Below the pieces are notes generated by a model, which made no database searches, was not told where the DNA came from, and worked only from the letters and a program-made list of their open reading frames with translations. A stretch of DNA of 64,000 nt from an uncultured Chloroflexia bacterium (lineage in GTDB: Bacteria; Chloroflexota; Anaerolineae; Anaerolineales; RBG-16-64-43). The position numbers were made by a program, and so were the translations under genes. Positions 31,680 to 60,696 of the stretch are shown one piece after another; position 1 is the stretch's first letter; each line of letters begins with the position of its first letter. The stretch is taken from assembly GCA_963780865.1 (NCBI GenBank), contig CAWADT010000006.1, forward strand, positions 20,858-84,857. The letters run 5' to 3'.

Positions 31680-32390
31680 ATGAACTGGCTTCAACGATTA
31701 TTCTCCCGGCCCGAAAAACAACCTCCCCTCGAGCAAAAATCCGCGCCGCCGGCCGCGGTTCCTCCCCCCGCCGCGGCTCCCGTTCTCCCCCCGGCTGCCG
31801 ATTCCCGCGACCAAGCCGAGAGCCATCTGCGCGAGGTGCAGGCCAAAACCAACAAGCTGGCGGAAGACTTCGCCCGCGGGGAAATCAACCGCTCCACCTT
31901 CATTCACCTCTACGAACATTATCAGCAGCAGCGCCAGGCCATCGAGCGGTTGCTGGAGATCTCGCCGGAGAGCTGGCGCGAAGCCGTCAGCCAGGGGAAG
32001 AGCATCGCCATCCGCCGAGAACATTTTGCCAAGCCTCTGGGATTTTCCATCTACGAGAACGCTTCGGGCATGCCGCTTTCGACGCTCGGCAAGTTCGATC
32101 TGGACCCGGCGCTGATGGTGCCGATGCTTTCCTCCTACCGCGAAGCCGCGCGCGAGATGTTCGGCTCGCGGATGCGCTCCACCCAGATCGAGAACGGCCG
32201 TTGGGTGTGCTTCGTCTCGGGTCAATTCACCACGCTGATCGCGCTCTATAACACCGAACCCGCCGCGCGGCAGCTGCAGCTGATGGAAGAGACGCACCTG
32301 TTTTTCGAACGCGCCAACAAGCCCAGGTTGCAGCAATCGCCGATCAACCTCGACGGGATGGTCTTCCCCCACGAGTATTACCTGCAGTAG
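31680..32390 (+). CDS. hypothetical protein: Pro-rich N-terminus, coiled coil, C-terminal Roadblock/LC7-like region (tentative)
   Basis: ATG 31680 follows TATAAT (31642-31647) and AAGGGGA. The C-terminal 120 aa (GFSIYENASGMPLSTLG...RWVCFVSGQFTTLIALYNTE...) has the alternating pattern I associate with Roadblock/MglB folds. 29 nt upstream of a small GTPase gene. Confidence 0.55.
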   Translation: MNWLQRLFSRPEKQPPLEQKSAPPAAVPPPAAAPVLPPAADSRDQAESHLREVQAKTNKLAEDFARGEINRSTFIHLYEHYQQQRQAIERLLEISPESWREAVSQGKSIAIRREHFAKPLGFSIYENASGMPLSTLGKFDLDPALMVPMLSSYREAAREMFGSRMRSTQIENGRWVCFVSGQFTTLIALYNTEPAARQLQLMEETHLFFERANKPRLQQSPINLDGMVFPHEYYLQ

Positions 32391-32419
32391 CCAATCCCCG
32401 CTCTCCAAGGAGCCTGAAG

Positions 32420-32917
32420 ATGTCGGACATCCCCCTGTATAAAATCTCGATCGCGGGCGATGAAGCCGTCGGGAAAACCTCCCTCATCCGGCGATATTGC
32501 GAGGGCAAGTTCGAAGAGTCGCGCGTCGCCACCATCGGCGTGGATTTCCAGACGAAGGTGGTCGAGCTGCCCTTGGGCGCGGTTAAGCTTTCCATCTGGG
32601 ATATGGCCGGGCAATCCCGCTTCGAAGTGGTGCGGACGGGGATGTACCGCGGCAGCCGCGCGACGGCGCTGGTGTTCGATCTTTCCAATCCGGCCACGCT
32701 CCAGCACCTCCCCGCTTGGCGCAACGAGGCGCAGACCAACGCGAAAGGCACAAAGCTCCTAGTGGTCGGCAACAAATTGGATCTGGCCGCGGAGCGCGGC
32801 GCCGGAAAAGCGTTCGCGGATACCATCGGCGCGGCCTACGTCGAAACCAGCGCGCAAACCGGCGAAGGCGTGGCGGAGCTGTTCACCGCGCTGGCCGCAC
32901 TGGCGGCGCAAGCATGA
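32420..32917 (+). CDS. Ras-superfamily small GTPase, Rab/Ras-like rather than MglA-like
   Basis: G1 GDEAVGKTS, switch I TIGVDF, G3 WDMAGQSRF, G4 GNKLD, G5 ETSAQ. 165 aa, no CAAX box. Confidence 0.85.
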   Translation: MSDIPLYKISIAGDEAVGKTSLIRRYCEGKFEESRVATIGVDFQTKVVELPLGAVKLSIWDMAGQSRFEVVRTGMYRGSRATALVFDLSNPATLQHLPAWRNEAQTNAKGTKLLVVGNKLDLAAERGAGKAFADTIGAAYVETSAQTGEGVAELFTALAALAAQA

Positions 32918-37312: not shown

Positions 37313-38312
37313 ATGGCCACGTATGTTCCACCAACGCAACGCCGCGAAAAGAGCCCGCATCTTCCCTTCGGCGAAATGCGCCAGACGCCGTTTTACGGAA
37401 AAGACATTCTTTCCGTCTCGCAGTTCGACCGCGAAAAACTGGAATACGTCTTCGGCGTCGCCGAGGAGATGCGTTCGATGGTCGAGCACGTCGGCACCTT
37501 CGACCTGCTCAAGGGGAAAATTCTCGCCAACCTGTTCTATGAACCGTCTACCCGCACCTCGTCGTCCTTCATGGCGGCGATGCAGCGGTTGGGCGGAAGC
37601 GTGATCCCCATCAACGAAGTGCGATACTCCTCGGTGGCCAAGGGAGAATCCCTGCCCGATACGGTGCGCACGCTGGAATCGTACGCCGACGTGATCGTCA
37701 TCCGCCATCCGGAAGTGGGTTCCGCGGCGATCGCGGCGATGTACGCGCGCAAGCCCGTGATCAACGCCGGCGACGGCGTGGGCGAGCATCCCACCCAGGC
37801 GCTGCTGGACCTCTTCACCATCCGGGAGGAACTCGGCCGGACGGATGAGTTGACCGTGACGATGCTCGGCGACCTCAAATACGGCCGCACGGTGCATTCG
37901 CTCTCGCGGCTCCTGGCGCAGTTCCAGACGAAACTGCATTGCGTCTCGCCGGATATCCTGCGCATGCCGCCCGAGTTCGTGGCCGAATTGAAAATCCAGG
38001 GGATGTCCATCCAGGAGCACACGAACCTGGACGAGGTTCTGCCGGAAACCGACGTGCTCTACGTCACCCGCGTGCAGAAGGAGCGGTTCGAGGACCAGGC
38101 GGTGTATGAATCGGTCAAGGGCGCGTTTGTCGTCACGCCCGAAATCCTCAAGCTTGCCAAGGACCAAATGATCGTGATGCATCCGCTCCCGCGCGTGGGG
38201 GAGATCGCGATGGACTGTGGACGCCGATCCGCGCGCGGCCTACTTCCGCCAGATGGAATACGGGCTGTACATCCGCATGGCGCTCCTGGCGATGGTGCTG
38301 GGGAAAGCGTAG
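37313..38312 (+). CDS. pyrB: aspartate carbamoyltransferase catalytic subunit; one frame break near 38216
   Basis: [30 protein letters not shown]. After dropping one T in ATGGACTGTGGAC the C-terminus reads [32 protein letters not shown], with TAG at 38310-38312. Confidence 0.9.
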
Positions 38313-38313
38313 G

Positions 38314-38367
38314 GGACCATGGACCATGGACGATGGACCATGGTCGATGGCCCATCGTCGATGGTCT
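38314..38367. repeat. short tandem/dyad array built on ggaccatgg / cgatgg units
   Basis: ggaccatggaccatggacgatggaccatggtcgatggcccatcgtcgatggtc. A related array lies at 52641-52714. Confidence 0.55.
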
Positions 38368-38395
38368 TTCGTTCGAAAAGAAAGGGAACACTCCG

Positions 38396-39789
38396 ATGAC
38401 GAAATTCTCAAGCTTGCTGGATCAACGCGCCCGCAAGGTTCGTTCCCTGCTCTGCGTAGGCCTGGATCCGCATCCGGAACTCCTGGCCCAGCCGACGGCC
38501 AGTGCGGCGCTGGAATTCTGCCTGCGGATCATCCGCGAGACGTCCGATCTGGCGCTGGCGTTCAAGCCCAACAGCGCGTTCTTCGAGGCGTTCGGGCCGG
38601 AGGGGATCCGGGCGCTGCAGGAAGTGATCGGCGGCGTGCCGCGAAACTGGGTGTGCCGGTGATCCTCGACGCCAAGCGCGGGGACATCGGCGACACTTCC
38701 AAAGCGTACGCGCGCGCGGCGTTCGAAACGCTCGGCGCCGACGCGCTGACGGTCAATCCGTACCTGGGCGGCGATTCGGTCGCGCCGTTTCTGGAACAGG
38801 AGGAGCGCGGCGCGTTCATCCTTTGCCGCACCTCGAACCCCGGCGCGGCCGATCTGCAGCTGCGGCGCGTGGACGGCGTGCCGCAGTATGAGACGGTGGT
38901 CGCGCTGGCGCGGAAGTGGAACACGCGCGGCAACGTCGGTCTGGTGGTGGGCGCGACCGACCCGGCGGCGATCGCCCGCGTGCGCGCGCTCGCCCCGGAC
39001 CTGTGGCTGCTGGTGCCGGGCGTGGGCGCGCAGGGGGGCGACCTGCGCGCCGCGGTGGAGGCCGGAATGCGCGCGGACGGCCTGGGCGTGGCGGTGAACG
39101 TCTCGCGTTCGCTTGCCAAGGCGGCCAGCCCGCGCGCCGAAGCCGAGAAGCTCGTTGCCATAATGCGCGATGCGATGACGGCGACCCGTCCAAAATCGGA
39201 TCCGGTCGTGCCGGAGCATCTGGAGGTGGCGGAAATTCTCAGCGCGTCGGGTTGCGTCAAATTTGGCAATTTCACGCTGAAATCCGGAAAGCAATCGCCG
39301 ATCTACTTGGACCTGCGCCAGCTGGTGTCGCATCCGGAGCTGCTGGCCCGCGCGGCGGCGGTGTACGTCCCGCTCCTGCGCGAAATGAAATTCGACCGCA
39401 TCGCCGGGCTGCCCTACGCCGCGCTGCCGATCGCGACCGCCATCAGCCTGCAGACGGGCTGGCCGATGATCTACCCGCGCAAGGAAGCCAAGGACTACGG
39501 CACCAAGGCGCAGATCGAAGGAGCGTACAAGCCGGGCGAACGGATCGCGATGGTCGACGACGTGGTGACCACGGGAGGCGCCAAGCTGGAAGCGCTCGAA
39601 AAATTGCGCGGCGCGGGCCTGGTGGTGGAGGACCTGGCGGTGCTGGTCGACCGCGAAAGCGGCGGCGCGGACAGCCTGCGCGAGATGGGCGTGCGCCTGC
39701 GCGCCGCGGCGCGCCTCCGCGATCTACTCCCGATCTGGCAATCGCAGGGAAAACTCACCGCCGAGCAGGTGGCGCAGGTGATGGCCTAA
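38396..39789 (+). CDS. pyrF: bifunctional OMP decarboxylase (N-terminal, long type 2) / orotate phosphoribosyltransferase (C-terminal); one frame break
   Basis: [27 protein letters not shown] is in the frame of ORF 37313-38662. The protein then continues as [14 protein letters not shown]... in ORF 38326-39789, joined at about 38625-38650. The C-terminal half [19 protein letters not shown]...[14 protein letters not shown] is PyrE-like. Confidence 0.85.
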
Positions 39790-39973: not shown

Positions 39974-40006
39974 AAACCGACGCGGTCTTTTAGACCGCGT
40001 CGGTTT
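39974..40006. terminator. bidirectional stem-loop aaaccgacgcggtc-tttta-gaccgcgtcggttt
   Basis: 14-bp perfect stem flanked by A and T runs, between convergent pyrF-E and the WXG100 gene. Confidence 0.6.
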
Positions 40007-40079
40007 GCATGTGCAAGGCTGTTTATTTAGAATCTAGAATTATCCGTGAAATCCGTGTTTTACCCGTGCCCCCCGTGAT

Positions 40080-40337
40080 TTATTTCTCCTGCTCTGCCGT
40101 CATCCTCCGCAGTTGGTCCGCGGATTTCTTCATCGCGGCGGTATGCAGGTCGACGCCCTTGCGCCAGTCGCCGTAGAAGCGGAAGAACGCTTTTTGCGCG
40201 TCGCCCTGCCATTTCGGCTCCACTTCCTTGACGGCTTTGGCGATTTTTTCCGCCGCGTTCTGGATTTGGGCGTTTGCTTCGTCAATTTCCTTAAGGAACT
40301 TGGTGATCTCTTCGGGATTGAAATCGATAACGGCCAT
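40080..40337 (-). CDS. WXG100 (ESAT-6-like) family protein
   Basis: 85 aa, two predicted helices with a central W-Q-G (EPKWQGDAQKAFFRFY). Confidence 0.8.
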   Translation of the reverse strand: MAVIDFNPEEITKFLKEIDEANAQIQNAAEKIAKAVKEVEPKWQGDAQKAFFRFYGDWRKGVDLHTAAMKKSADQLRRMTAEQEK

Positions 40338-40358
40338 GTTTACCTCGCGGCGGAAAAA

Positions 40359-40688
40359 TTAACCACTGCCTCTTTGATAAGCTTCCCAATCGGGATTGAC
40401 GTACTGCTCCCGGCGGGTAACCTTGATCGTGCGGAAATATTTTTCCTGCTTGATCAGATTTTCAAGCTGGGGGATGATTTTCCTTTTATGAGGATCGATC
40501 TCGGAGATAAAAGAATCCTTCCGGTGCCCCTCCCAGTTGAAATCCAAAAACTTGGCGGAGGATTCCACCCTGTCCTTTTCCATGGTTAATAGGTGGATCT
40601 GCGCGAGAATTTTATCCGCCAGGCGGTCAGCCTCGGGCGGATGGAAGAGGACATCACGATATAGGTATTGTGGAGGTATGGAAGCCAT
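40359..40688 (-). CDS. WXG-like small helical protein, probable partner of 40080-40337
   Basis: 109 aa. Central NWEGHRKDSF (W-x-G). Located 21 nt upstream of the WXG100 gene on the same strand. Confidence 0.55.
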   Translation of the reverse strand: MASIPPQYLYRDVLFHPPEADRLADKILAQIHLLTMEKDRVESSAKFLDFNWEGHRKDSFISEIDPHKRKIIPQLENLIKQEKYFRTIKVTRREQYVNPDWEAYQRGSG

Positions 40689-40799
40689 TGGTCCCCCAAA
40701 TACATAGTTGAAATGGATTATAAATCATGATATTATCAATGTCAATAGATCACCGGCAAGTTTATAGAATTATTTTCAGAACGACAAAGAGGGGACATT

Positions 40800-41630
40800 A
40801 TGGCGCGCATCCGGGTCGATACAGACGATCTTAAAGCCAAAGCCAAGGATTTCGAAACGGCCGCCAATGCATTTAACAAGGCAGGCGATGAGATCGCCGC
40901 CGCCGCGATGGGGATGCCGAGCTACGACGGCCAGCTTTCGGGCCCGGCCCGCGCGGCGGGATACGAAATCCAGCGCCAGAGCCGGGAAGTGCAGGCCCTC
41001 CTCGCTGGCGATGCGCAATCGCTGCAAAAGACGGCGCAGGCGTTTGAAGAGGCGAATAATCAGGCCATTGATGCATTTGGACAAAACCAAGAATTACTTG
41101 CCTCACATACCCCTGATAAGCTGCAAGGAATTGATATCGGAAATGCCTATCTTGGGTACCGGGATGATGGTCTGAGTGAGACAGTTATCCTATGTATGTA
41201 TGGCGTTTGCAATGTAATCCCGCGCAAGGGTAATGAATTGGTTATTGCAGACTTTGAGAAAAAGGTCGATGATTATGTGAAAGATGAGAAAACAATGTGG
41301 GATGAATGGAATAAAACTGTAGAGGCGGCGGTTATCGCATCGGGTTTATTAATTGGATTAACAATCATTACGGGAGGAACTGCTGCATTCGTCGCCGCAG
41401 GTTTGGGGGCGGCAGGTTCCATAGGTGGTGAAATCCTTGAATCGAAGGCCTGTAAAGATGCTCAGACAGATATGGCGAAGGATACTTATGGTGCAGCCTA
41501 TTACTGGAACATAATGTTTGGAAGCAAGGGTCTTGGACCGTGTACCACAGGGGATGATATTCAGGATCCAGTTGATCTTTGGAAACGGCAAAATCAAGAT
41601 ATTTATGATCCAACGGCACCTTGCACTTAA
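40800..41630 (+). CDS. polymorphic-toxin-like protein: WXG100/LXG-like helical N-domain plus an AT-rich C-terminal domain with a glycine-zipper membrane segment
   Basis: N-terminal 90 aa form a helix-turn-helix hairpin (RVDTDDLKAKAKDFETAANAF...SYDGQLSGP...LQKTAQAFEEAN). The C-terminal part carries AAVIASGLLIGLTIITGGTAAFVAAGLGAAGSIGG. RBS AGAGGGGA precedes the ATG. Confidence 0.65.
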   Translation: MARIRVDTDDLKAKAKDFETAANAFNKAGDEIAAAAMGMPSYDGQLSGPARAAGYEIQRQSREVQALLAGDAQSLQKTAQAFEEANNQAIDAFGQNQELLASHTPDKLQGIDIGNAYLGYRDDGLSETVILCMYGVCNVIPRKGNELVIADFEKKVDDYVKDEKTMWDEWNKTVEAAVIASGLLIGLTIITGGTAAFVAAGLGAAGSIGGEILESKACKDAQTDMAKDTYGAAYYWNIMFGSKGLGPCTTGDDIQDPVDLWKRQNQDIYDPTAPCT

Positions 41631-41664
41631 GAACCGTGCAATCGAATGAGATAGAGAGGTATTT

Positions 41665-42161
41665 ATGGACTTTCATCAAATATTAATTTATCTCAATGGG
41701 TTATTCTTTCTTGTAGCGGCATTATTCCAATTTTATCTTTTGCTGCGAGGCAGAGTTTTTTAATTAGATTAAGTATTCTTTTTTTACTTTGTTGTTTCCT
41801 AAATTCATGGATTATTCTATTGGATCTATCCTCATCTCGGGGTTTTGATTTATATGAAGGTCTCCTATTATGCCTACTTATTTTCATATTTATTGTTGTC
41901 CTCTTGGACGAAAGACAACGGAGAATATTCTTTGGGATTAGTCTAAATCATTTTATGTTGGCAATTAATGATTACCTAAATAAGAACGATTTGAAATATA
42001 AAAAAGAATCATTGACGATTATATCTATTAATAATCCCCTAATAGTATTTGATCTCAAGCCTATTCTAGGAAACCTTGGAACAATGATATCACGAAGAAT
42101 GGATAAGAATATAAAGGAGGATTCAAATTACAACCATTATTTTCCAATAGAATCTGATTAA
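41665..42161 (+). CDS. small polytopic membrane protein, candidate immunity protein; probably needs a 1-nt correction in a T6 run
   Basis: ATG 41665 gives MDFHQILIYLNGLFFLVAALFQFYLLLRGRVF*. A shift in TTTTTT (41756-41761) continues as LIRLSILFLLCCFLNSWIILLDLSS...LLLCLLIFIFIVVLL (ORF 41820-42161). Confidence 0.4.
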
Positions 42162-42171
42162 GAATATTAAA

Positions 42172-42273
42172 ATGAATTGGCCTAGCAAAATATCCATATT
42201 CTTGCTCTTTTGTATTTTTTCTCTGCTTCTATATATATTTTTAATTTCAAATGGAATTCACATTTCGTTTTGA
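42172..42273 (+). CDS. 33-aa hydrophobic peptide (speculative)
   Basis: MNWPSKISIFLLFCIFSLLLYIFLISNGIHISF. A single TM-length segment, too short to score. Confidence 0.2.
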   Translation: MNWPSKISIFLLFCIFSLLLYIFLISNGIHISF

Positions 42274-42295
42274 CATTTATTGAGGAGGAAAAAAA

Positions 42296-42925
42296 ATGGA
42301 AAACCAATCTTATAAATTATCGAAGCGGGCCGAGGGCTATTTTTCTACCATAAAAGAAAAGATGATGGAATTGAATGAGAAGATGGAATCCAATTTACTA
42401 TTAGTGAAAGATGAAAACCAATATGTACATATTGTTATTAATGGTAAGCAAAGAATTCAATCAATGGTAATTTCGGATTTATTACTAAATTCAAAAGATA
42501 AGCAAGAAGTTTGTCGATATCTTCTCGGAATAATCAATTCCGCAATACAAAAATCCAATTTTGATAACCTAATAAATGCGCAAAAAACTATTTCGGTTAA
42601 AGAATATCATGAAATGATTAATCAGGAAAAACAATCTATAACTGAAACAATAAAGGGAATGGAGAAGTCATTTCAGGCGGAATTGAATGAATTAGCATAT
42701 ATTAAGAAACATACGATTTCGGACGCCGGAAATATATCAGTGGTGATGTCTGGATTGCAGCAAATACAATTATTGGAAATTGATCCTCTCTATATTACGA
42801 GTGAAAACAAAAATAAGTTAATAAATGAAATTATTGAGGTTGTTAATAAAGCCACGATTGAAATTCAAAAAGAAGCTATTGATAAAATAAAGCAACAAGA
42901 TAATGAGTTATTACAATTATATTGA
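42296..42925 (+). CDS. protein made of two tandem YbaB/EbfC-like domains
   Basis: Domain 1: IKEKMMELNEKM...ENQYVHIVINGKQRIQSMVISDLLLNSKDKQEVCRYLLGIINSAIQKS. Domain 2: ISDAGNISVVMSGLQQIQLLEIDPLYITSENKNKLINEIIEVVNKATIEIQKE. Both follow the E. coli YbaB pattern G.V.V..NG......v.IDP.ll..d...LedLi..A.N.A. RBS GAGGAGGA. Confidence 0.6.
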   Translation: MENQSYKLSKRAEGYFSTIKEKMMELNEKMESNLLLVKDENQYVHIVINGKQRIQSMVISDLLLNSKDKQEVCRYLLGIINSAIQKSNFDNLINAQKTISVKEYHEMINQEKQSITETIKGMEKSFQAELNELAYIKKHTISDAGNISVVMSGLQQIQLLEIDPLYITSENKNKLINEIIEVVNKATIEIQKEAIDKIKQQDNELLQLY

Positions 42926-42997
42926 TATAATTAATTAATGAAAAACATTTAGTGATTAATTGCAATCTCCGATAGCAATATTATCAATAAATCCTGT

Positions 42998-43918
42998 TTA
43001 CACCGCTTTTCCAATCAGCTCGCGTATCGATTTCACCCCATGTTTCAGTAAATATTGTTGCATTCCCTTCGCCGTCGTTTCAAACACGTTCGGCTGACGG
43101 AACATCGCCGTTCCGATCCCGACGCAGGTTGCGCCAGCCAGGATGAGCTCAAGCGCCTCCTCCGCGTTCGTCACTCCGCCCAGGCCGACGATGGGGATGT
43201 TGTTTTTCTTGCAGCAGGAGGTGTAGCATTTGTACACCGCGTACACGGCCACAGGGTGAATGCCTATCCCGCTCAAGCCTCCGATCCGGTTTCCAAGCGC
43301 CGGTTTCTGCGTCTCCACGTCGATCGCCATGCCGCGCAGCGTGTTGATCACGCACAACGCGCCCGCCCCGCCGCGGATCGCCGCCTGGGCGATCGCGGCG
43401 ATGTCGGTAACGTTCGGCGTCAGCTTCACGATCAGCGTCTTCCCCAGCACCACCTTGCGGACCCGCGCGACGAGATCCTCGAGCACCGCTTCATCGCAGC
43501 CGAATTCGATCCCGCCCTTTTCAAGGTTCGGACACGATACATTGAGCTCAATCGCATGGATTTCCTCGCGCGGGGCGAGGATTTCCGCGCACTGGACGTA
43601 TTCGTCGATTTCGGATCCGGAGACGCTCGCGATTACGGGAACCTCGAGCTTCCGCAGCTTGGGGATTTCCTCCGCCACGAAAGCGGCGATGCCCGGGTTC
43701 TGTATCCCGATCGCGTTAAGCATCCCGGCCCGCGTTTCGACGATGCGCGGTTCCGGATTGCCCGCCCGCGGATGGAGCGAGACGCTTTTGAGCACGGCCG
43801 CGCCCATCCAGGGGCGGCTCGCGGCGAGCGCTTCATAGTCCAGGCCGTAGACGCCCGACGCCGAGAGCAGCGGGGTCTCCAGACGCAGCGATCCGAGACG
43901 GGTTTCTAATCCTTCCAT
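42998..43918 (-). CDS. pyrD: dihydroorotate dehydrogenase (class 1B) catalytic subunit
   Basis: Start at ATG 43918 (MEGLETRLGSLRLETPLLSASG). NAIGIQNPG, ELNVSCPN, GGLSGIGIHPVA. Confidence 0.9.
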   Translation of the reverse strand: MEGLETRLGSLRLETPLLSASGVYGLDYEALAASRPWMGAAVLKSVSLHPRAGNPEPRIVETRAGMLNAIGIQNPGIAAFVAEEIPKLRKLEVPVIASVSGSEIDEYVQCAEILAPREEIHAIELNVSCPNLEKGGIEFGCDEAVLEDLVARVRKVVLGKTLIVKLTPNVTDIAAIAQAAIRGGAGALCVINTLRGMAIDVETQKPALGNRIGGLSGIGIHPVAVYAVYKCYTSCCKKNNIPIVGLGGVTNAEEALELILAGATCVGIGTAMFRQPNVFETTAKGMQQYLLKHGVKSIRELIGKAV

Positions 43919-44889
43919 GGGATGTCCCTCGCTTCGAAGACCGGCCCTTCTCGGCAGACCCGCTTGCGGGAAATTGTGCCGTCCGGCCCGATCACCCGGG
44001 TGGTGCAGGAGTAACAGGAGCCCACTCCGCACGCCATGCGTTTCTCGAGCGTAACTTGGCAGTCCAGGGAATGGCGCGCGGTAATTTCCGCAACCGCGCG
44101 CAGCATTCCCTCCGGTCCGCAGGCGTACAGGCAAACGCTTTCGCGCGGAACGCAACCGTCGCGGAGGCCCTGCTCAAGCATTTCGGTGACGAGGCCCTTC
44201 TCTCCAAGCGACCCGTCGTCGGTGCATACGGTCAGCACCCGGGCGCCGATCTCGTCGAATTCCGAGTGGATTGCGTCGTAGAGAGCCTGATCCTCAACCT
44301 GGCCTCCCATTTCCGAATTGCTGGGCGTCGAGCTGACCGCCAGGCTGAGCATTTCTTTTTTCACCGCGCCAAGGTAGATCAGGACTTCCTTGCCGTGCTG
44401 CCGCAGCCGCTCCGCGAGCGCCGCCAGCGGCGCAACGCCTATGCCGCCCGCGACGATCACGGCTGTGCGGGCCGCGCCGATGGCAAATCCGTTTCCGCAC
44501 GGACCGATCGCGCGGAGGACCGCTCCCCGGCGGGTGCGGCTCAGGATGTCCGTTCCTTCGCCTGCCACCCGGTATAGAAAATCGATCCGGGCGGGATGAC
44601 GGGCGATCGCTTGGCGCAGCTCCTCCGGCAAATCCTCGGCCTGGGCGAGCGCCGCGCGGTGAAAATGGGGATACTCCGCGCGATGAATGCTGAGCGGCCG
44701 CCTCAGGGTCAGCGGGTAGGCGCGCGGTTTCCCAACCTCCGGATCGCACAGGACGTGAAAAAACTGGCCCGGAAGAAAATCCAACTGCGCGGCTTTTGGA
44801 AGCTCCAATTCGATGAGGAAATGCCCCTCGCAGATTTTTCTGTTTTGCACGACCTTGAGTTTGAGGTCGCGGATCGGCGAAGCGTTTAT
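43906..44889 (-). CDS. pyrK: dihydroorotate dehydrogenase electron-transfer subunit; start uncertain
   Basis: RRPLSI, GPCGNGF, VAGGIGVAP, and C-terminal 2Fe-2S MACGVGSCYSC. The ORF stays open to 45189, but homology begins near IRDLKLKVVQNRKI (about 44880). No canonical start codon is nearby except GTG at 44850. Confidence 0.8.
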   Translation of the reverse strand: MNASPIRDLKLKVVQNRKICEGHFLIELELPKAAQLDFLPGQFFHVLCDPEVGKPRAYPLTLRRPLSIHRAEYPHFHRAALAQAEDLPEELRQAIARHPARIDFLYRVAGEGTDILSRTRRGAVLRAIGPCGNGFAIGAARTAVIVAGGIGVAPLAALAERLRQHGKEVLIYLGAVKKEMLSLAVSSTPSNSEMGGQVEDQALYDAIHSEFDEIGARVLTVCTDDGSLGEKGLVTEMLEQGLRDGCVPRESVCLYACGPEGMLRAVAEITARHSLDCQVTLEKRMACGVGSCYSCTTRVIGPDGTISRKRVCREGPVFEARDIPWKD

Positions 44890-44911
44890 CCACGCGTCGG
44901 CGGGGCGGCCT

Positions 44912-45424
44912 TCAAGGAAATCGCCGATACGGTGCGAAGGGCCTGGGAAGATCGGCGTCCGGAGCGGTATCTCTATGACGCCACGCGCAAAAGCGGCGTT
45001 CCAATTCAAGATAGGAAAGGCCGCCCCATTCGGAAACGGTTCCGTCGCGTCCCAGACTCGCAATTCGAATTTCGGTTTTTCCAAATGTGAAACCGACGCT
45101 CCGTTTTGCAGACGTCTTCCAGGCGATTTTTCCGGGAATGTTTTGCGAAGAGCGGACGGAATAACCAAGCGCTTTGCCCCACTCGCCAAGCAGGGCGGCG
45201 GTCCGTTTCCGCCGGTGGCGCAGAATTTCCGCCACCGTAAGGCTTTGGCGAATGGCGGATACGTCCTCCACCGTCAGGCCGTCTTGGCTAAGACGTTCGA
45301 CCGCCAGATGGCGGGCGGCGGCTATGTCGTCCGGGCTCCCCGCCGCGAGCGATTCCGCGTCGAGGACGATCCGGCGCCAATCTCTCTGGGATGTCCCTTC
45401 GCCCGGCAGTCTTGCCTTTTCCTT
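44912..45424 (-). CDS. unresolved open frame between the methyltransferase and pyrK; possibly the methyltransferase C-terminus after a frame slip
   Basis: A frame open for 171 codons reads KEKARLPGEGTSQRDWRRIVLDAESLAAGSPDDIAAARHLAVERLSQDGLTVEDV...GKALGYSVRSSQNIPGKIAWKTSAKRSVGFTFGKTEIRI. No family recognised. It begins at the A4GGA4GG tract where the methyltransferase frame turns to nonsense-like sequence. Confidence 0.3.
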   Translation of the reverse strand, partial: KEKARLPGEGTSQRDWRRIVLDAESLAAGSPDDIAAARHLAVERLSQDGLTVEDVSAIRQSLTVAEILRHRRKRTAALLGEWGKALGYSVRSSQNIPGKIAWKTSAKRSVGFTFGKTEIRIASLGRDGTVSEWGGLSYLELERRFCAWRHRDTAPDADLPRPFAPYRRFP

Positions 45425-47016
45425 TTAATGAACGCTAGCTTGTCGTTCCGATAGCGCGCGAAGGGGGCGGCTGCGGGAAGGAGAATTTCATCGATCGGAG
45501 ATTCCGGAAGGGCGGCAATTTCTTCCCGATCGAGCCGTTGGTAAAAAGACCGCAGGATTTTATCGGCCGTGATCTTATTGCCATAGAGGCCGAACAATTC
45601 GCGTGCCGCGGCGGCCGCCTTTTTATGGAGCCTTTCCGCAGGAACTCCTATGACCGGCCCCGTTTGTTTTTTAATTACCGGCGCGCGCACCACGTATCCG
45701 CTGTTTTGCGATCCGTTGCCACCCGTCCCTGGCTGGTAGTGGATGTGTTCCGCCGCCAATCCGCCGCTCGCAAGGATGCCCAGGAACTGCGGAAAAAATT
45801 TTCCGCCGGAGTTTGCGCAGAAAAAATGCGCGCAGCTTCCTTCCTTGGCGACGCGGTGGAGCGCGCGTACAACGATGGACATCCGCTCGCGGTATTGATC
45901 GACGCTCCGGCCGCTTTCCGGGGCAATGACAATTTCCCGGCTGTGATCGAATTCCATCTTCAGCCAGGCCGCCTGGATGGCCGGCAGGAGGAACATGTCT
46001 CCGGGGGCTTCGAACGGCGGTTCCGTCAACACATAGTCGATGGAATTCTCGGGTAGTTCACAAATCAACGCATCCTCGGCGGATTTCCCCAGGATCACCA
46101 CGCTGGCCTGCCGCGATTCCAGCTCTCCATAACCGTAGCCAATCGTGGCGCGGTTTAAAACGGAATTGCTTTCCTTTTTTCCGTCGTAAATTCTTTGGAA
46201 GCTCCCGGCAAACGCGTCCCAGGGGTTTGCCACCGTGCATTTTTGCACCCCGCTTCGCCGGACCGATTGTTTTTCCTTCGCACGGCCCCGCGCAGCGGCG
46301 GTCGCCCGAGGAAGCAGCGGAAAGGGGCAATGGCATGCGGCCAAAGAGGAAGCGAAGGCTGATTTCATCGCATCCCGGACGGAAGGTTCGGTGATATTGT
46401 TGATCGAATTTAAAATGATGGAGAACGCGGCAACCGTCCGGCGGCGAAGAAAATCAGCGGGATACCCCCAGCTTGCGTCCGGATTCACCGGTAGGGGTAG
46501 GCGGGTCGGATGCCAGAAGGGGATGTCCGTGTCCGCGTTCTCCACTTCCACCCGCCGGTCGCCCGCATCGGGTGTTTTCGAAAGCCTTGCCGGGGAACAG
46601 GGGCAGGAATAATCCAACCGGGTTAGTTTCCCGTTTTCCCGGTGAAGGACATGCACGATGCCTTTTTTACCGCATTTCGGGCAGGTTGTCGCGAACAGTT
46701 CGGAGATCACGTCCCGGCAAGTTTCGCGGAGGTCCTCGTAAGCCCATTGCAGCCTCGGGAGGCTGACGGGAGTGAAAACTACTTCGGTGAAAAAGGATGC
46801 CAGGGGACTGGGATCAGTCGTCACCGCCCGGCGGCCCAAGCGCAAGGCTTCGATGGCCGTGGTTCCGTTGCCGCCGAATGGATCGAGGACGACGTCGCCT
46901 TCGTTGGTGTATGCGCGGATGAGTTCCGCGGCCACCGCTGGGGGCAGGTTTCCGCCGCGGGGATGCATCGCTTGGATCGGGTCGCTGCCGGCGCCGGCCG
47001 GCAAATCAGATTCCAT
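45322..47016 (-). CDS. Zn-ribbon-containing N6/N4 DNA methyltransferase-like protein with permuted motif order (AdoMet motif first, then xPPF)
   Basis: HPRGGNLPPAVAAELIRAYTNEGDVVLDPFGGNGTTAIEALRLGRR (motifs X-I), CPKCGKKG...CPC (Zn ribbon), IDYVLTEPPF (motif IV-like, with E instead of D/N/S). Confidence 0.7.
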   Translation of the reverse strand: MESDLPAGAGSDPIQAMHPRGGNLPPAVAAELIRAYTNEGDVVLDPFGGNGTTAIEALRLGRRAVTTDPSPLASFFTEVVFTPVSLPRLQWAYEDLRETCRDVISELFATTCPKCGKKGIVHVLHRENGKLTRLDYSCPCSPARLSKTPDAGDRRVEVENADTDIPFWHPTRLPLPVNPDASWGYPADFLRRRTVAAFSIILNSINNITEPSVRDAMKSAFASSLAACHCPFPLLPRATAAARGRAKEKQSVRRSGVQKCTVANPWDAFAGSFQRIYDGKKESNSVLNRATIGYGYGELESRQASVVILGKSAEDALICELPENSIDYVLTEPPFEAPGDMFLLPAIQAAWLKMEFDHSREIVIAPESGRSVDQYRERMSIVVRALHRVAKEGSCAHFFCANSGGKFFPQFLGILASGGLAAEHIHYQPGTGGNGSQNSGYVVRAPVIKKQTGPVIGVPAERLHKKAAAAARELFGLYGNKITADKILRSFYQRLDREEIAALPESPIDEILLPAAAPFARYRNDKLAFIKRKRQDCRAKGHPREIGAGSSSTRNRSRRGARTT

Positions 47017-47387
47017 TTTGCAGGGTGCGAAGGATCCTGGTCATTGGCGTTTTCCGGACCGTCGCGCGTGGTGATGGTCTATTTCGCCCGCCCGCGAGTC
47101 CGTGAATGGCAGACATTGTTGTGAATCAATGGGATATTCGATGGTTATATTATTGAGTGAAGGGAAGAAGAATAAAGGTGCGCTCATACTCCAGGCCGAT
47201 TACGAACCATTGCAATTTCCCGCAATCGTAAAAAGCCGCTCGCTCCGGTCTTCCTCGCGATTATATCAGGTCCAAGACTTGCCCAAGATAATATTGTGGT
47301 TTTTATAGGGTAATTCGACGATTTCAATACTTTTGCCTCTAACAGGCTGCTGAAAAACGTTGATTTTGTTTTGGGCATCCACGCCCG

Positions 47388-57508: not shown

Positions 57509-59998
57509 CTATTCTTTGGGATGTTCGGCGTGCATCGTGCGCAACGCCCACAAGGCTTCGAAGGCCGGGCTGCGCACGGAACTTTCGCCGTCGCTCAATC
57601 CCATGCACAAATCCTGAAGGAACCGGTTCTCGGCCATGGCACCGAGCGCTTCCACCGCGGCGGCCCGCTGGCGCGGTTCGCCCTCGCGGATCGCGCGCTC
57701 GAGCATGGCCAGGGTGGGCGCGCCAGGCGCGAGGCCCGTCTTTCGCTGTGCGGCAAACGACACCAGCCAGGGCAAATTCGCGGGGGATGGCATGGGAACC
57801 AGCGGGCTTTCGGATTCTCCATGCAGCCGTTCCACGGCCTGCGCGGCCGCCGACTTCACCGCCCACTGTCCGTCTTCTATCTGCACCCGTTCGAGGATTT
57901 CCAGCGCCCAGGGTTGTCCGGTGCGCGCCAGACCGAAGACCGCAGCGCGGCGGACCAGTAGTTCCGCGTCCTGGATGGCTTCCCGCAGGATGCCGTGCCC
58001 TTCGATCGGATCCAGGGATAGTCCCTCGGCGACGGCGCGGCGCAGATCGTCCTCGCCCTGAAGGAGGGTTTGGCCCAAGACGTCGATGGCGGCGTGGGAA
58101 GCGATCCGGCCGAGGGCCAGCGCGCCGGCCCAGCGCAACTCCCGCGAATCGGATTCCATTTGTTTGGAGAGCAGCTCCACAGCGCTCTGGTCGGCCATCG
58201 CCCCCAGGCCCAGCGCCGAAAGGATCCGTGCTTCCAGGTCGGAATCCGGAGCAGAGAGAAGCTGCCGAAAAAGCTGGGTGGCGGATGAGTCGCGGCTGTT
58301 GAGGAATGCGGCCAGCGCCCGGGCGCGGAGCGGAAATGGCTGGCTGGGAGTGCGCACCACTTTCATCAACCGGCGGAAAACCTCCACGCGCCATCCGGCG
58401 GTGGGCGGGGCATCGCGCAGCCAGGCGGCCACGTGAAGCAGTTTCCAGCCGTCCTCCACCAGCGGCGGCATCCGCGGCTCGCCGGATGCGGCCTCGCCTT
58501 CCTTTATTAAGGTTGGCGTGAGCCGGGCCGAGACGAGCGTGGCGACGTCGGTTTGCGCCGCCAGCGCGGTAGCCGAAAGCTCCGCCAGAGGCGTGCGGGA
58601 GCTCGCGAGAAACGCCGGCAGGTTTGCCTCGTTGCCCAGGGCGAGGGAGGAAAGCCGCGCGGCGATGACGATGTGGCCGAAGCTGACCCGCCCGGCGGGC
58701 CGTTTGCGCAACACGCCATGCGTGATCATCTCATCGAAGAAATCTTCCACGGGCGGGAGTGATTGTTCCGAATGCGGCCAGGCCAGCGCCATCGCGGTTT
58801 CCACTTGCTTGCGCGTGGGGGCGGAAATATTTTCGGCGATCATCCCCCGCACCACCTGGGCCAGGGCTTCTTCGGCGGCCGGAGGCAGGTGGCGGGTGAC
58901 GTAGGCTTGTTGGTCGGAAGCCGCCGTCGTTCCCTGCAAATCCCCGCTGAAGGCCGCCCAGGCTCGGAGGGTGATATCGAGCGGTGAAAGGCCAAGCGTT
59001 TGCCGGGAGAGCCAGCCGAGCAGCAATGCGGGATCCGCCTTTTCGGTCGTCTTCCGGTCCGAGACCACGATTTCCTGCCAGCGCTTCCCCCATTGTTCCA
59101 GGAACCTGCGATGATCCGCGGGCAGCCAGGGGGCCGGAGTGGCGACCGCGAACCCCATCGGCCGCCAGTGATTGATTTCCTCGGGATCGACCGTGATGAT
59201 CAGCCGCGCCTTCGGATATTGGGCCATCAGCGAGCGGACCCACTCGCGCACTTCGTCCTGGGCGGAGTAGGAGAGCTCGTCGACGGAATCCAGGAGCAGC
59301 AGCGAACCTTCGCTTTTTAGGTTGCCCTTCAAGTAAGGGGGAATTTGAGACGCGGAAAGGGTGGAGGCGTAGTGCTGGATGGCCGACTCCAGCGGCACGA
59401 GCGCATCTTTGGTTGAATTCGGCAGGGTCAGATCGTGCGCGTTAACATAGAATAGCGATTTGGGAATTCCGGCGGCCGGGGCGCCCGTCTCCACCGACCG
59501 GCGCAACCACTCGAGGGTCAACGCGGCGAGCACGGTCGACTTGCCGCTTCCCGGCAGACCGGCCAGGAGAAGTTGCGGTTTGAGCGAAAGCAACTGCGTG
59601 ACGGGGATTCCGACCGTGCCGTACGATTCGGCGAGCTGCGGCCAATCGGGTGCGAAGGGGAAGAGGGTCGGCGCGTCGTATTCCGGGGGCTGGTCCGGAT
59701 CCAAAGGCGGCGGAGCGGCGAGAAGGCGCGGCGGAAGCAGGATCTCTTCCAGCGCAAACAGGTGGGTGACCATGTGCGACGATTGGGCCCACCGCATCAG
59801 GTCGTTGCGATACCCCTGGGCTGCCGTGGTGGTTAAAGCTTCCAGGGCGGTCCGGTAGGATTCCCCCATGGCTTCCCGGAACGATGCGATCCGCGGGCGG
59901 AGCCGGAAGAGCACGAAGGCCAGCAGGACGGCGAGGAGGAATCCGATCCAAAAGGAAAGCGAATCAAATCGCCAGTCGGTGAGGAATTTCATGCTCAT
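57509..59998 (-). CDS. STAND NTPase: N-terminal TM helix, NACHT-like P-loop module, C-terminal HEAT-type repeats
   Basis: Walker A GLPGSGKSTVL, Walker B LLLLDSVDEL, C-terminal repeated ...RRAA...ALG... units. Start at ATG 59998 (MSMKFL) overlaps the upstream TGA as ATGA. Confidence 0.75.
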   Translation of the reverse strand: MSMKFLTDWRFDSLSFWIGFLLAVLLAFVLFRLRPRIASFREAMGESYRTALEALTTTAAQGYRNDLMRWAQSSHMVTHLFALEEILLPPRLLAAPPPLDPDQPPEYDAPTLFPFAPDWPQLAESYGTVGIPVTQLLSLKPQLLLAGLPGSGKSTVLAALTLEWLRRSVETGAPAAGIPKSLFYVNAHDLTLPNSTKDALVPLESAIQHYASTLSASQIPPYLKGNLKSEGSLLLLDSVDELSYSAQDEVREWVRSLMAQYPKARLIITVDPEEINHWRPMGFAVATPAPWLPADHRRFLEQWGKRWQEIVVSDRKTTEKADPALLLGWLSRQTLGLSPLDITLRAWAAFSGDLQGTTAASDQQAYVTRHLPPAAEEALAQVVRGMIAENISAPTRKQVETAMALAWPHSEQSLPPVEDFFDEMITHGVLRKRPAGRVSFGHIVIAARLSSLALGNEANLPAFLASSRTPLAELSATALAAQTDVATLVSARLTPTLIKEGEAASGEPRMPPLVEDGWKLLHVAAWLRDAPPTAGWRVEVFRRLMKVVRTPSQPFPLRARALAAFLNSRDSSATQLFRQLLSAPDSDLEARILSALGLGAMADQSAVELLSKQMESDSRELRWAGALALGRIASHAAIDVLGQTLLQGEDDLRRAVAEGLSLDPIEGHGILREAIQDAELLVRRAAVFGLARTGQPWALEILERVQIEDGQWAVKSAAAQAVERLHGESESPLVPMPSPANLPWLVSFAAQRKTGLAPGAPTLAMLERAIREGEPRQRAAAVEALGAMAENRFLQDLCMGLSDGESSVRSPAFEALWALRTMHAEHPKE

Positions 59999-60696
59999 CC
60001 CAAGTAGAGGATCCGCCCGCAATTACCGCATTGAATGATTTCCTGCCCGGAACGGGCGGAGTCGACGCGCGCCGAAGAGGGGGCCACCCCGCAGGCGCCG
60101 CAGGCTCCGCTTTCAAACCGGACGACGGCCATTCCGTGCTTGCTCCGCCGCAGGGCGGAATATCTTTCCAGGTCTTCCGGAGTCACCGCGGAAACGGCCG
60201 CTTCCCGCTGGTATCCAATCGTCTCGAGGGTGGATTGCACAACGGCTCGTTCCGCGAGCAGCTTCTCGTCCAGTCCGGACCGCAACCGCTCCTGCTCCTC
60301 CCGCGCCGCTTGCGCGGCGGCCACGGCTTTCTCGGATTCTTCGCACCGCATCATCGATTGCAATTGCCGTTCCTCAAGCACCGCGAGGTACCGGCGCAAC
60401 GAGGCGGATTCCTCTTGCACTTCCTGCAATTCCTTGGGGTTGCTCACGCCGCCGCCGTACAGCGTTTTATCGGTTTCCGCTATCCGCTGCTGCTGGCTCC
60501 GGGTTTCTTCCTCGGTTCGATGAAGATCCTTTTTCGCGTCGTCCCACAGGGCGCGCGCGGCTTCCTCCTCCGCTTGCGCGCGGTCCAGATCCGGATGCTG
60601 CTTGAGGCCCGTCTCGATATCCGACAGCCGCGCCTGATGGGAATCGATTTGACTGTCCAGGGTTTGCAATCGGAAAAGGTTGGAAATACGCGTCAC
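59995..60696 (-). CDS. coiled-coil protein with a C-terminal C4 zinc ribbon (COG1579/DUF164-like)
   Basis: NLFRLQTLDSQIDSHQARL..., long heptad region, CGACG...CGNCGRILY. GTG start at 60696 is preferred over TTG at 60726. Confidence 0.7.
   Translation of the reverse strand: MTRISNLFRLQTLDSQIDSHQARLSDIETGLKQHPDLDRAQAEEEAARALWDDAKKDLHRTEEETRSQQQRIAETDKTLYGGGVSNPKELQEVQEESASLRRYLAVLEERQLQSMMRCEESEKAVAAAQAAREEQERLRSGLDEKLLAERAVVQSTLETIGYQREAAVSAVTPEDLERYSALRRSKHGMAVVRFESGACGACGVAPSSARVDSARSGQEIIQCGNCGRILYLG

Follow-up and report, generated by a model that had tools for sequence, protein, structure and literature searches.

Type VII secretion systems (T7SSs) have two kinds of component in common, WXG100 proteins and an ATPase of the FtsK/SpoIIIE family; predictions of ESX systems exist for several Chloroflexi (PMC4010439, PMC10765036). 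Their substrates are often encoded far from the machine, as is seen for TspA and TslA (PMC10765036). LXG toxins with Lap1/Lap2, and EsaD with EsxB, EsxC and EsxD, form complexes of helpers and head before secretion (PMC10765036, PMC10801868), and TelE and EsxX are glycine-zipper T7SS toxins that act on membranes (PMC10434224, PMC12744356). The YbaB-fold proteins EspH, EspD and EspL have been proposed to stabilise specific ESX-1 substrates (PMC6109436, PMC6107294, PMC6319747), and YbaB/EspL-like genes occur in satellite ESX-4 substrate operons (PMC13491425). From Chloroflexi, WXG-headed polymorphic toxins were catalogued by Zhang et al. in 2012 (PMC3482391), and WXG100-calpain fusions have been noted in Herpetosiphon (PMC4631099). 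We have analysed a stretch of 64,000 nucleotides from an uncultured Chloroflexia bacterium of the order Anaerolineales (contig CAWADT010000006.1), called the window below, in which genes for two small WXG100-type proteins, a 276-amino-acid (aa) effector, a membrane protein and a protein with two YbaB domains lie between convergent pyrimidine genes. To our knowledge, nearly all experimental work on T7SSs and their toxins has been done in Actinomycetota and Bacillota, and we know of no such work on a T7SS of Chloroflexota.

This segment is probably a polymorphic effector–immunity cassette from the world of type VII (WXG100/ESX-like) secretion, with its machine encoded elsewhere. It is built of two modules. 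The constant module, 40037–41063, contains the 85-aa and 109-aa proteins of canonical and predicted WXG100 fold, a predicted bidirectional promoter, and the head of the effector, about 100 residues long. The variable module contains the C-terminal domain of the effector, the polytopic membrane protein and the tandem YbaB protein, and it is exchanged between relatives and always AT-rich.

The comparison drew on 48 related loci, obtained from genome and metagenome collection scans with the effector family and from contig look-ups, with 10 kb flanks. The effector has 79 homologues, most of them metagenome proteins, and every source name that bears a taxon is Anaerolineales. About 20 of the homologues are full-length, with 40–63% identity, and the others share only the first 35–45% of the protein, at 60–70% identity. 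The heads are about 45–79% identical, and 50–79% over some 100 residues, while the tails are unrelated or 40–60% identical, and one head homologue (P0046) bears a calpain-like peptidase tail. In a tblastn map, the arrangement 85 <- 109 <- / -> head-X is seen in about 15 of the 48 loci, all Anaerolineales. The tandem YbaB gene lies downstream in about 12 loci, several of which have a membrane protein of about 205 aa between effector and YbaB. Some heads are orphans, occurring as pairs of a head–tail gene and a small transmembrane gene, for example beside an IS3-type transposase. On a 15.5-kb contig (L048, 842–5505), two effector-family genes on opposite strands flank an IS3-type transposase (HTH_Tnp_1 + rve), which hints at a route by which orphan modules move.

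The limits of the exchange are seen in locus L045 (GCA_936416935.1), which has AraA-FGGY-aldolase as its left flank and a right flank orthologous to that of the window. In a blastn comparison, 40037–41063 of the window aligns with L045 at 83.7% and 42998–47270 at 74.4%, but 41064–42997 gives no alignment, and the homology restarts exactly at the pyrD stop. In place of 41064–42997, L045 has a different tail, a small transmembrane open reading frame (ORF) and no YbaB. Because the homology to L045 is lost exactly there, only 41064–42997 has been exchanged, as judged from the alignment. The adjacency of cassette and pyrD is common to both genomes, and the window's peculiarity is its left flank, pyrC-B-F/E instead of aldolase. 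In most other relatives, the neighbour of the cassette is an aldolase/Ara cluster. Elsewhere, one syntenic site, AraA...aldolase(-DsbD) / cassette / GGDEF...GH38, carries the cassette in three genomes, with effectors of 264, 320, and 342 aa, each followed by different downstream genes; L043 and L046 have the same left side (AraA/aldolase). A conserved membrane protein of about 869 aa, polytopic, is encoded just past the GGDEF gene in the syntenic loci (L012 14506–17115, L013 14545–17154, L043 12215–14821). We considered it as a T7SS membrane component and rejected it as unrelated synteny, since it has no Pfam match and no homologue in the window.

The exchanged half is also marked by its base composition. 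The G+C content (GC) of the window is 0.62–0.68 in the pyr genes and about 0.5–0.58 over the first three cassette genes, and it drops along the 276-aa gene to 0.28–0.30 at 41600–43000, which is the lowest value and strongest dip of the window. The GC at third codon positions (GC3) is 0.28–0.37 in the variable module and 0.59–0.78 in its neighbours, with 0.73 for the gene of the 85-aa protein. We place the break at about 41000–41060, near the AT-rich onset at about 41045 given in the preliminary description of this DNA. A break at the head/tail junction is found in 7/7 loci analysed, with GC3 of 0.49–0.81 for helpers and head and 0.27–0.49 for tail, membrane gene, and YbaB. The junction of YbaB and pyrD is also present in the independent Logan assembly L001 (YbaB 100% identical, pyrD 99%), and it is therefore no assembly chimera. 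Thus, a constant head is found on unrelated tails, and tail and downstream gene are replaced together, with a composition break; by its sequence organisation, the locus is a polymorphic-toxin locus in the sense of Zhang et al. (2012).

We propose that the 85-aa and 109-aa proteins would pack on the effector head before secretion into one extended bundle of helices. A bipartite export signal, comparable to those of Lap1/Lap2 with LXG toxins and EsxB/C/D with EsaD, would be made up of the WXG turn and the C-terminal tail of the 109-aa protein, and the complex would be exported by a machine with an EssC/EccC-type ATPase encoded elsewhere in the genome. The Gly/Ala-rich hairpin of the tail could then insert into the membrane of a competitor and depolarise it or form pores, like TelE, TspA, and EsxX, from which the producer would be protected by the membrane protein of about 200 aa as immunity factor. 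In the tandem YbaB protein, two domains in one chain would imitate the YbaB dimer, and this protein may keep the hydrophobic tail soluble or stable before export.

A close parallel is with the LXG toxins of Bacillota T7SSb and their helpers Lap1/Lap2 or EsxB/C/D (TelC/TelD, EsaD, TspA). There, too, two small WXG100-type helpers are encoded beside the effector, an N-terminal helical targeting domain precedes a variable C-terminal toxin domain, an immunity gene (a candidate here) is adjacent, the cassette can stand far from the secretion genes, and a helper C-terminal tail is a candidate export arm (PMC10765036, PMC10801868). However, the head of the present effector is a WXG100-like hairpin of about 100 residues as modelled, not an LXG domain of about 200; the helpers are transcribed divergently from the effector; and one helper is a canonical WXG100 protein, whereas the other comes from a tiny family (16 clusters). 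The host belongs to Chloroflexota, and a tandem YbaB gene is added. With the glycine-zipper toxins TelE, EsxX and those of TspA type, which depolarise membranes and have membrane immunity proteins, the effector shares a small Gly/Ala-rich hydrophobic C-terminal domain followed by a polytopic membrane gene. Nonetheless, no sequence similarity to these was detected, the present tail carries in addition a beta domain in which two cysteines are invariant, only some members of the family show the strict GxxxGxxxG pattern, and membrane activity is predicted. As with EspH, EspD, and EspL of mycobacterial ESX-1, a YbaB/EbfC-fold protein is encoded with type VII substrates and not with recR/dnaX, but here two YbaB domains are fused in a 209-aa chain, the gene lies in an exchangeable AT-rich module, and the phylum is another.

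The toxins of Zhang et al. (2012) and of Herpetosiphon have in common with the cassette a WXG-type N-terminal trafficking domain on diverse tails in Chloroflexi, and the calpain-like tail recurs in P0046. The conserved five-gene cassette, the fixed helper pair and the YbaB partner are undescribed in those surveys, and the term 'YbaB' does not occur in the accessible part of the text of the 2012 survey (PMC3482391). Because WXG-headed toxins and WXG100-calpain fusions have already been described from Chloroflexi, the kind of system is known, here in a little-studied lineage, and on present evidence there is no new secretion machine or mechanism. What is new is the highly conserved helper pair, one of whose members represents a very small WXG100 subfamily not characterised before; the bidirectional promoter, which is also conserved; and the precisely bounded swappable module with a tandem YbaB inside it. 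The result is a small cassette that recurs in environmental Chloroflexota and has clearly separate constant and swappable parts, a recombination junction placed within a few bases (41063/41064), and an unusual conservation of the helper pair and of the promoter toward the effector gene. The fused-dimer YbaB ties the mycobacterial YbaB-fold ESX chaperones to another phylum. If the proposed helper, chaperone, and immunity roles are true, the logic of two small helical partners with a headed toxin predates the split of T7SSa and T7SSb, and the cassette supplies new families of membrane toxin and immunity protein.

All of the genes listed in the preliminary description are present in the ORF listing at the positions given there, and the cassette genes span 40080–42925. 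The 85-aa protein had been called a canonical WXG100 protein, and it matches Pfam WXG100 (PF06013) with 43.1 bits, against a cut-off of 27.3 (E = 5e-11), and TIGR03930 with 41.8, slightly below the cut-off of 44.85. W43 and G45 of its W43-x-G45 motif are invariant in 20 homologues. By these profile matches, it is a bona fide member of the WXG100 superfamily, and we propose that it serves the effector head as a small helical partner or as a co-substrate. Its family is narrow, with 52 proteins at 71–100% identity to the window protein, nearly all of 85 aa; the homologue search returned only this tight clade and no paralogues that could mark a core locus.

The 109-aa protein, noted before for its W-E-G motif, has no Pfam match and reaches only E = 0.099 on TIGR03930. 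Its family is tiny, with 16 representative clusters among 1.84 billion proteins in an exhaustive HMMER search, and the identity between the window copy and those of the cassette relatives is 57–79%. W52-E53-G54 is conserved in the alignment of the homologues. A shallow profile gave no match in the PDB, but the family profile matches B. anthracis EsxB with E = 2e-7 over nearly the full length and several EsxA chains at E = 4e-3 to 2e-2. Three remote family members have PF06013 matches below threshold, of up to 25.5 bits. With hhalign, the probability of a match between the shallow alignment and the 85-aa family was 2%, rising to 26% once the remote members were added. In a single-sequence model with a predicted local distance difference test (pLDDT) score of 61, helices 17–51 and 57–90 form a hairpin with W52-E-G54 at the turn, and the best PDB matches found by Foldseek are EsxB and CFP-10/ESAT-6. 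Because of the EsxB/EsxA profile matches, the sub-threshold PF06013 matches and the hairpin model, we read the 109-aa protein as a divergent WXG100-fold protein that lies below the curated cut-offs. It has an N-terminal HPPEAD motif and a conserved C-terminal tail, predicted to be unstructured, with the sequence QYxNPxWEAYQRG (QYVNP[D/E]WEAYQRG). Most Anaerolineales copies of this tail fit a candidate YxxxD/E export motif, from which the wider family departs.

The head of the 276-aa effector (residues 2–94) gives only sub-threshold WXG100/EspC/DUF6317 matches, and its relatives score 20–25 bits on PF06013. Within residues ~1–100, a PSYDGQLSGPAR loop stands in place of WXG, with the loop motif PSYDGQLSGP. 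LXG (PF04740) gave no match to the protein at E ≤ 1 in Pfam or NCBIfam, and an hhalign comparison of the head with the 85-aa family was uninformative. In a model built from 18 homologues (pLDDT 68), helices 8–38 and 47–102 make a hairpin, and the best PDB matches of this part found by Foldseek are EsxA/EsxB, with target template-modelling scores of 0.8–0.87 and E about 0.5. The model thus suggests a WXG100-fold targeting head at residues ~1–100. Of the WXG/LXG-like head previously described, the WXG100 likeness is probable, given the model matches to EsxA/EsxB and the weak PF06013 scores, and the LXG likeness found no support.

A four-strand beta unit, modelled confidently, follows at about residues 108–141, spanning 111–141 in the model, and in it C132 and C137 are invariant. 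Residues 146–239 are modelled as a long helical hairpin (146–190/195–239) whose tip is hydrophobic and rich in Gly/Ala: the 40 most hydrophobic consecutive residues, which begin at residue 174, lie there and are 50% Gly/Ala/Ser. The protein has a conserved DIYEP-like end, and its tail has no match to a known toxin domain in Pfam, NCBIfam, or the PADLOC defence models. The close neighbours of the cassette repeatedly include a gene for a membrane thiol-disulfide protein of DsbD/CcdA type that has a thioredoxin-like domain (L002 7108–8835, L013 7194–8921, L003 15442–17238, L042 6673–8403); in view of the two invariant cysteines of the effector, the proximity could reflect a functional link or mere synteny.

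A stretch of 665 bp carrying hydrophobic ORF fragments separates the 276-aa gene from the 209-aa gene. The small ORFs noted there before are hydrophobic, as had been said, but they are not separate genes. The 113-aa ORF at 41820–42161 and its neighbours are fragments of one multi-transmembrane gene of about 200 codons, as the intact 208-aa protein of L003 matches the window in tblastn with 43% identity over 145 aa, with both termini in another frame. The pieces lie at 41665–41754 (frame 3), 41718–42128 (frame 2), and 42160–42264 (frame 3), with frame changes in 41750–41790 and 42128–42160, the first of them at T6/T7 runs. These are either assembly indels at the T6/T7 runs or the marks of a pseudogene. 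Indels in a long-read metagenome assembly are the simplest explanation because pyrB and pyrF also change frame: the C-terminus of pyrB and the N-terminus of pyrF lie in shifted frames at 38200–38700, the OTCace match ending at profile position 128 of 157 and the OMPdecase match beginning at profile position 45. Failing that, several pseudogenes would be present. Members of the membrane-protein family are encoded between effector and YbaB in L003, L013, L043, and L046, and the variable proteins downstream of the effector are all small multi-transmembrane proteins.

The 209-aa protein matches YbaB_DNA_bd (PF02575) in two stretches with 57.4 bits, against a cut-off of 25.5, and TIGR00103 with 40.3, and both of its halves have weak matches to YbaB structures in the PDB; the earlier assignment as a tandem YbaB protein is therefore correct. 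Homologues of 210–217 aa with 19–40% identity were found in L002, L003 (two copies), L013, L043, and L046, and the tandem architecture is kept in 7 homologues. A search of 5.8 billion proteins returned only the query itself, with no relative close enough to share 5-mers. The tandem YbaB mostly accompanies the tail type that also has the membrane protein of about 205 aa. Downstream of YbaB in L046 (11793–15093) are a 615-aa protein with a weak Big_13 Ig-like match and three successive proteins of about 150 aa with no Pfam match, which may be a tandem paralogue array.

The preliminary description had noted that no EssC/EccC ATPase is encoded nearby, and our searches agree with this. The window has no ORF of at least 1000 aa, and a scan of ten large window ORFs, among them all those of 500 aa or more, gave no FtsK/SpoIIIE ATPase. 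The window ORFs with a Walker A motif encode ATP synthase subunits, ABC transporters, a Ras-like GTPase, and a NACHT protein. A phmmer search with the E. coli FtsK motor against ORFs of at least 60 aa from the window and the 48 loci (484 kb) gave no match; in the PDB, the same query finds EccC (5e-16), YukB (1e-15), and EccC5 (3e-11). No EssC turned up in 12 contig contexts and the collection scans made with the effector family. In L011 (12008–15654), an orphan head–tail gene and a 267-aa multi-transmembrane gene lie directly upstream of a NurA-HerA pair. HerA is a member of the FtsK-HerA superfamily. We rejected NurA-HerA as the missing ATPase, since the pair was met at a single locus and is known to process DNA.

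Of the two options in the preliminary description, a satellite of a machine encoded elsewhere and a minimal export module, the former is the best fit to this evidence. We take the cassette to be a satellite carrying substrate and immunity for a type VII-like machine elsewhere in the genome, a machine that we infer. Several observations weigh against this effector–immunity interpretation. The 64-kb window and up to 10 kb around the 48 loci contain no EssC/EccC or other core T7SS gene. The effector head scores 14.5 bits on PF06013, where the cut-off is 27.3, and has neither a WXG nor an LXG motif. The Foldseek E-values for the 276-aa and 109-aa models are >0.1, and their pLDDT of 68 and 61 is moderate; a resemblance to WXG100 is to be expected of any helical hairpin. 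Across the wider 109-aa family, the Y96xxxD/E100 motif is not kept, Ala being frequent at position 100, and the canonical (G/A/S)xxxGxxxG zipper occurs only in some members of the effector family. The candidate immunity gene is frameshifted in the window, and in L002 the effector is followed by YbaB, with no membrane gene between.

The whole 3-kb segment had been described as an island wedged between the pyrimidine genes, and a recent acquisition of foreign DNA would agree with the strongest GC dip of the window, with a content unrelated to pyrimidine metabolism, and with a left flank, pyrF/E, unlike the aldolase flank of relatives. However, the cassette of L045 lies directly beside the orthologous pyrD-pyrK-methylase-PadR-ABC-ABC2 genes, with 67–93% protein identity, the constant half is near the host in composition (GC3 0.59–0.73), and homology is missing only over 41064–42997. 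No integrase, no tRNA, and no convincing flanking direct repeats or att sites were found around the cassette, and a plasmid search with it gave no match. We therefore consider the island very unlikely. An ancestral locus of normal composition had been named as the alternative to it; the cassette is indeed shared beside pyrD in L045, but the AT-rich break persists in 7/7 loci. The effector family might also have nothing to do with interbacterial toxicity and be an accessory protein of a T7SS or a factor anchored in the membrane that acts on the cell itself, in the envelope or in signalling, with the multi-transmembrane protein and YbaB as its partners and its variability due to diversifying surface functions. 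Such a role, which we think unlikely, would suit the retention of the whole tail in about 18 full-length homologues (41–62% identity, with invariant Cys, Tyr, and Trp), the lack of a known toxin domain, the missing membrane 'immunity' gene of L002 and the recurrent DsbD-like neighbour. It is harder to reconcile with heads joined to unrelated tails, among them the calpain-like peptidase, with the orphan head–tail–small transmembrane pairs elsewhere, one beside an IS element, and with replacement of the whole tail and the downstream modules at orthologous sites with a composition break. Replacement of tail and downstream genes, shared heads, and orphan pairs are hallmarks of polymorphic toxin/immunity loci (PMC3482391).

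The other option raised for the secretion step is a self-contained minimal module, in which the WXG100 proteins, the membrane protein, and YbaB would export or insert the effector without an EssC-type ATPase. The absence of an FtsK/SpoIIIE ATPase from 484 kb, with a working positive control, and the retention of the gene content at several unrelated chromosomal sites are in line with this. We find it highly improbable, as the cassette has no NTPase, channel, or other energy-coupling domain and there is no positive evidence for such a module; the other loci are visible for 10 kb on each side only, and a large distance between a T7SS substrate gene and the machine, as for TspA and TslA, is common (PMC10765036). 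Furthermore, ESX/type VII systems, which are predicted in several Chloroflexi, are defined by the joint presence of WXG100 proteins and ATPases of the FtsK/SpoIIIE family (PMC4010439, PMC10765036). A related idea, that these Anaerolineales lack EssC/EccC altogether and that the two WXG100 proteins form, with the headed effector and the tandem YbaB, a delivery module independent of an ATPase or otherwise powered, seems to us quite unlikely. In a milder version, the tandem YbaB may represent a type of partner not seen before, either chaperone or immunity protein, that is specific to its module and travels with the toxin tail in type VII-like polymorphic toxin loci. The YbaB protein alone could also be a nucleoid-associated DNA-binder that regulates or silences the AT-rich module, or a part of immunity, and this is a possibility, if a doubtful one. 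DNA binding as a dimer is the founding function of the family (PMC6109436). Like immunity and module-specific genes, this gene evolves rapidly, with 19–48% identity to the window protein; it is invariably located in the AT-rich variable module and occurs mainly with the tail type that has the ~205-aa membrane protein. On the other hand, the only YbaB-fold proteins that we know to have been studied in type VII systems, EspH, EspD, and EspL, stabilise or bind specific substrates (PMC6107294, PMC6109436, PMC6319747), and a cytoplasmic immunity protein makes little sense against a membrane-targeting tail. Within the effector–immunity cassette, the tandem YbaB is probably a tail-specific chaperone by analogy with EspL, EspH, and EspD.

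The divergent promoter region was compared between the window and L002, L004, L009, L012, L013, L017, L021, L043, L045, and L046. The mean column identity of these 11 loci is 82%, which is above the conservation of the adjacent proteins. Two sigma70-like promoters stand face to face in this region, one on the minus strand (40745–40717) matching the consensus at 12/12 positions and one on the plus strand (40708–40736) at 10/12, with TG. It also contains a conserved AGAGGGG, a predicted ribosome-binding site, and an invariant palindrome, ATCATGAT. The palindrome, together with the conservation of the region, suggests an operator for some regulator.

The features of the locus are collected in Table 1. 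The convergent pyrimidine flanks reported before are borne out by Pfam for pyrB, pyrF/E, pyrD, and pyrK, with weaker agreement for pyrC. The homology to the cassettes of relatives starts at 40037, about 30 bp to the right of the inverted repeat, whose hairpin is probably a bidirectional terminator for the convergent pyrF/E and WXG100 genes.

Table 1. Cassette and flanking features in the window, with the protein identity of right-flank genes to their L045 orthologues
Feature	Position	Strand	Basis or remark	Identity to L045
pyrC	left flank	+	weak Amidohydro_1 match only	
pyrB	left flank	+	OTCace (Pfam)	
pyrF/E	ends 39789	+	OMPdecase match and weak PRTase match (Pfam)	
Inverted repeat, perfect 15-bp, AAACCGACGCGGTCT / AGACCGCGTCGGTTT	39974..40006		100% complementary; between convergent pyrF/E and WXG100 gene	
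WXG100 protein, canonical, 85 aa	40080..40337	-	Pfam WXG100; constant module	
WXG100-like protein, divergent, 109 aa	40359..40688	-	family profile, model; constant module	
Divergent promoter region, 111 bp	40689..40799		conserved across 11 loci	
Effector, 276 aa	40800..41630	+	head in constant module, tail in variable module	
Variable AT-rich module (effector tail, membrane gene, YbaB gene)	41064..42997		no DNA homology to L045	
Candidate immunity gene, ~200-aa polytopic membrane protein, three frames	41665..42265	+	tblastn with L003 208-aa protein	
Tandem YbaB protein, 209 aa	42296..42925	+	Pfam YbaB_DNA_bd; variable module	
pyrD	stop at 42998	-	DHO_dh (Pfam)	88%
pyrK	right flank	-	DHODB Fe-S (Pfam)	74%
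Methylase	45322..47016	-		67%
PadR				80%
ABC				93%
ABC-2				88%

On the right flank, the pyrK ORF, which has a long N-terminal extension, and the methylase gene adjoin on the same strand (43906–47016). At L045 12587–15718, an N6/N4 DNA methylase and PyrK (DHODB Fe-S domain) are called as a single 1043-aa product, which is either a methylase–PyrK fusion or a read-through artefact. Three further patches of reduced GC (0.47–0.52) are seen in the window at about 8–11 kb, 33–35 kb, and 47–48 kb. The window also encodes a Ras-family small GTPase (32252–32914) and an 837-aa NACHT-HEAT repeat protein (57509–60022).

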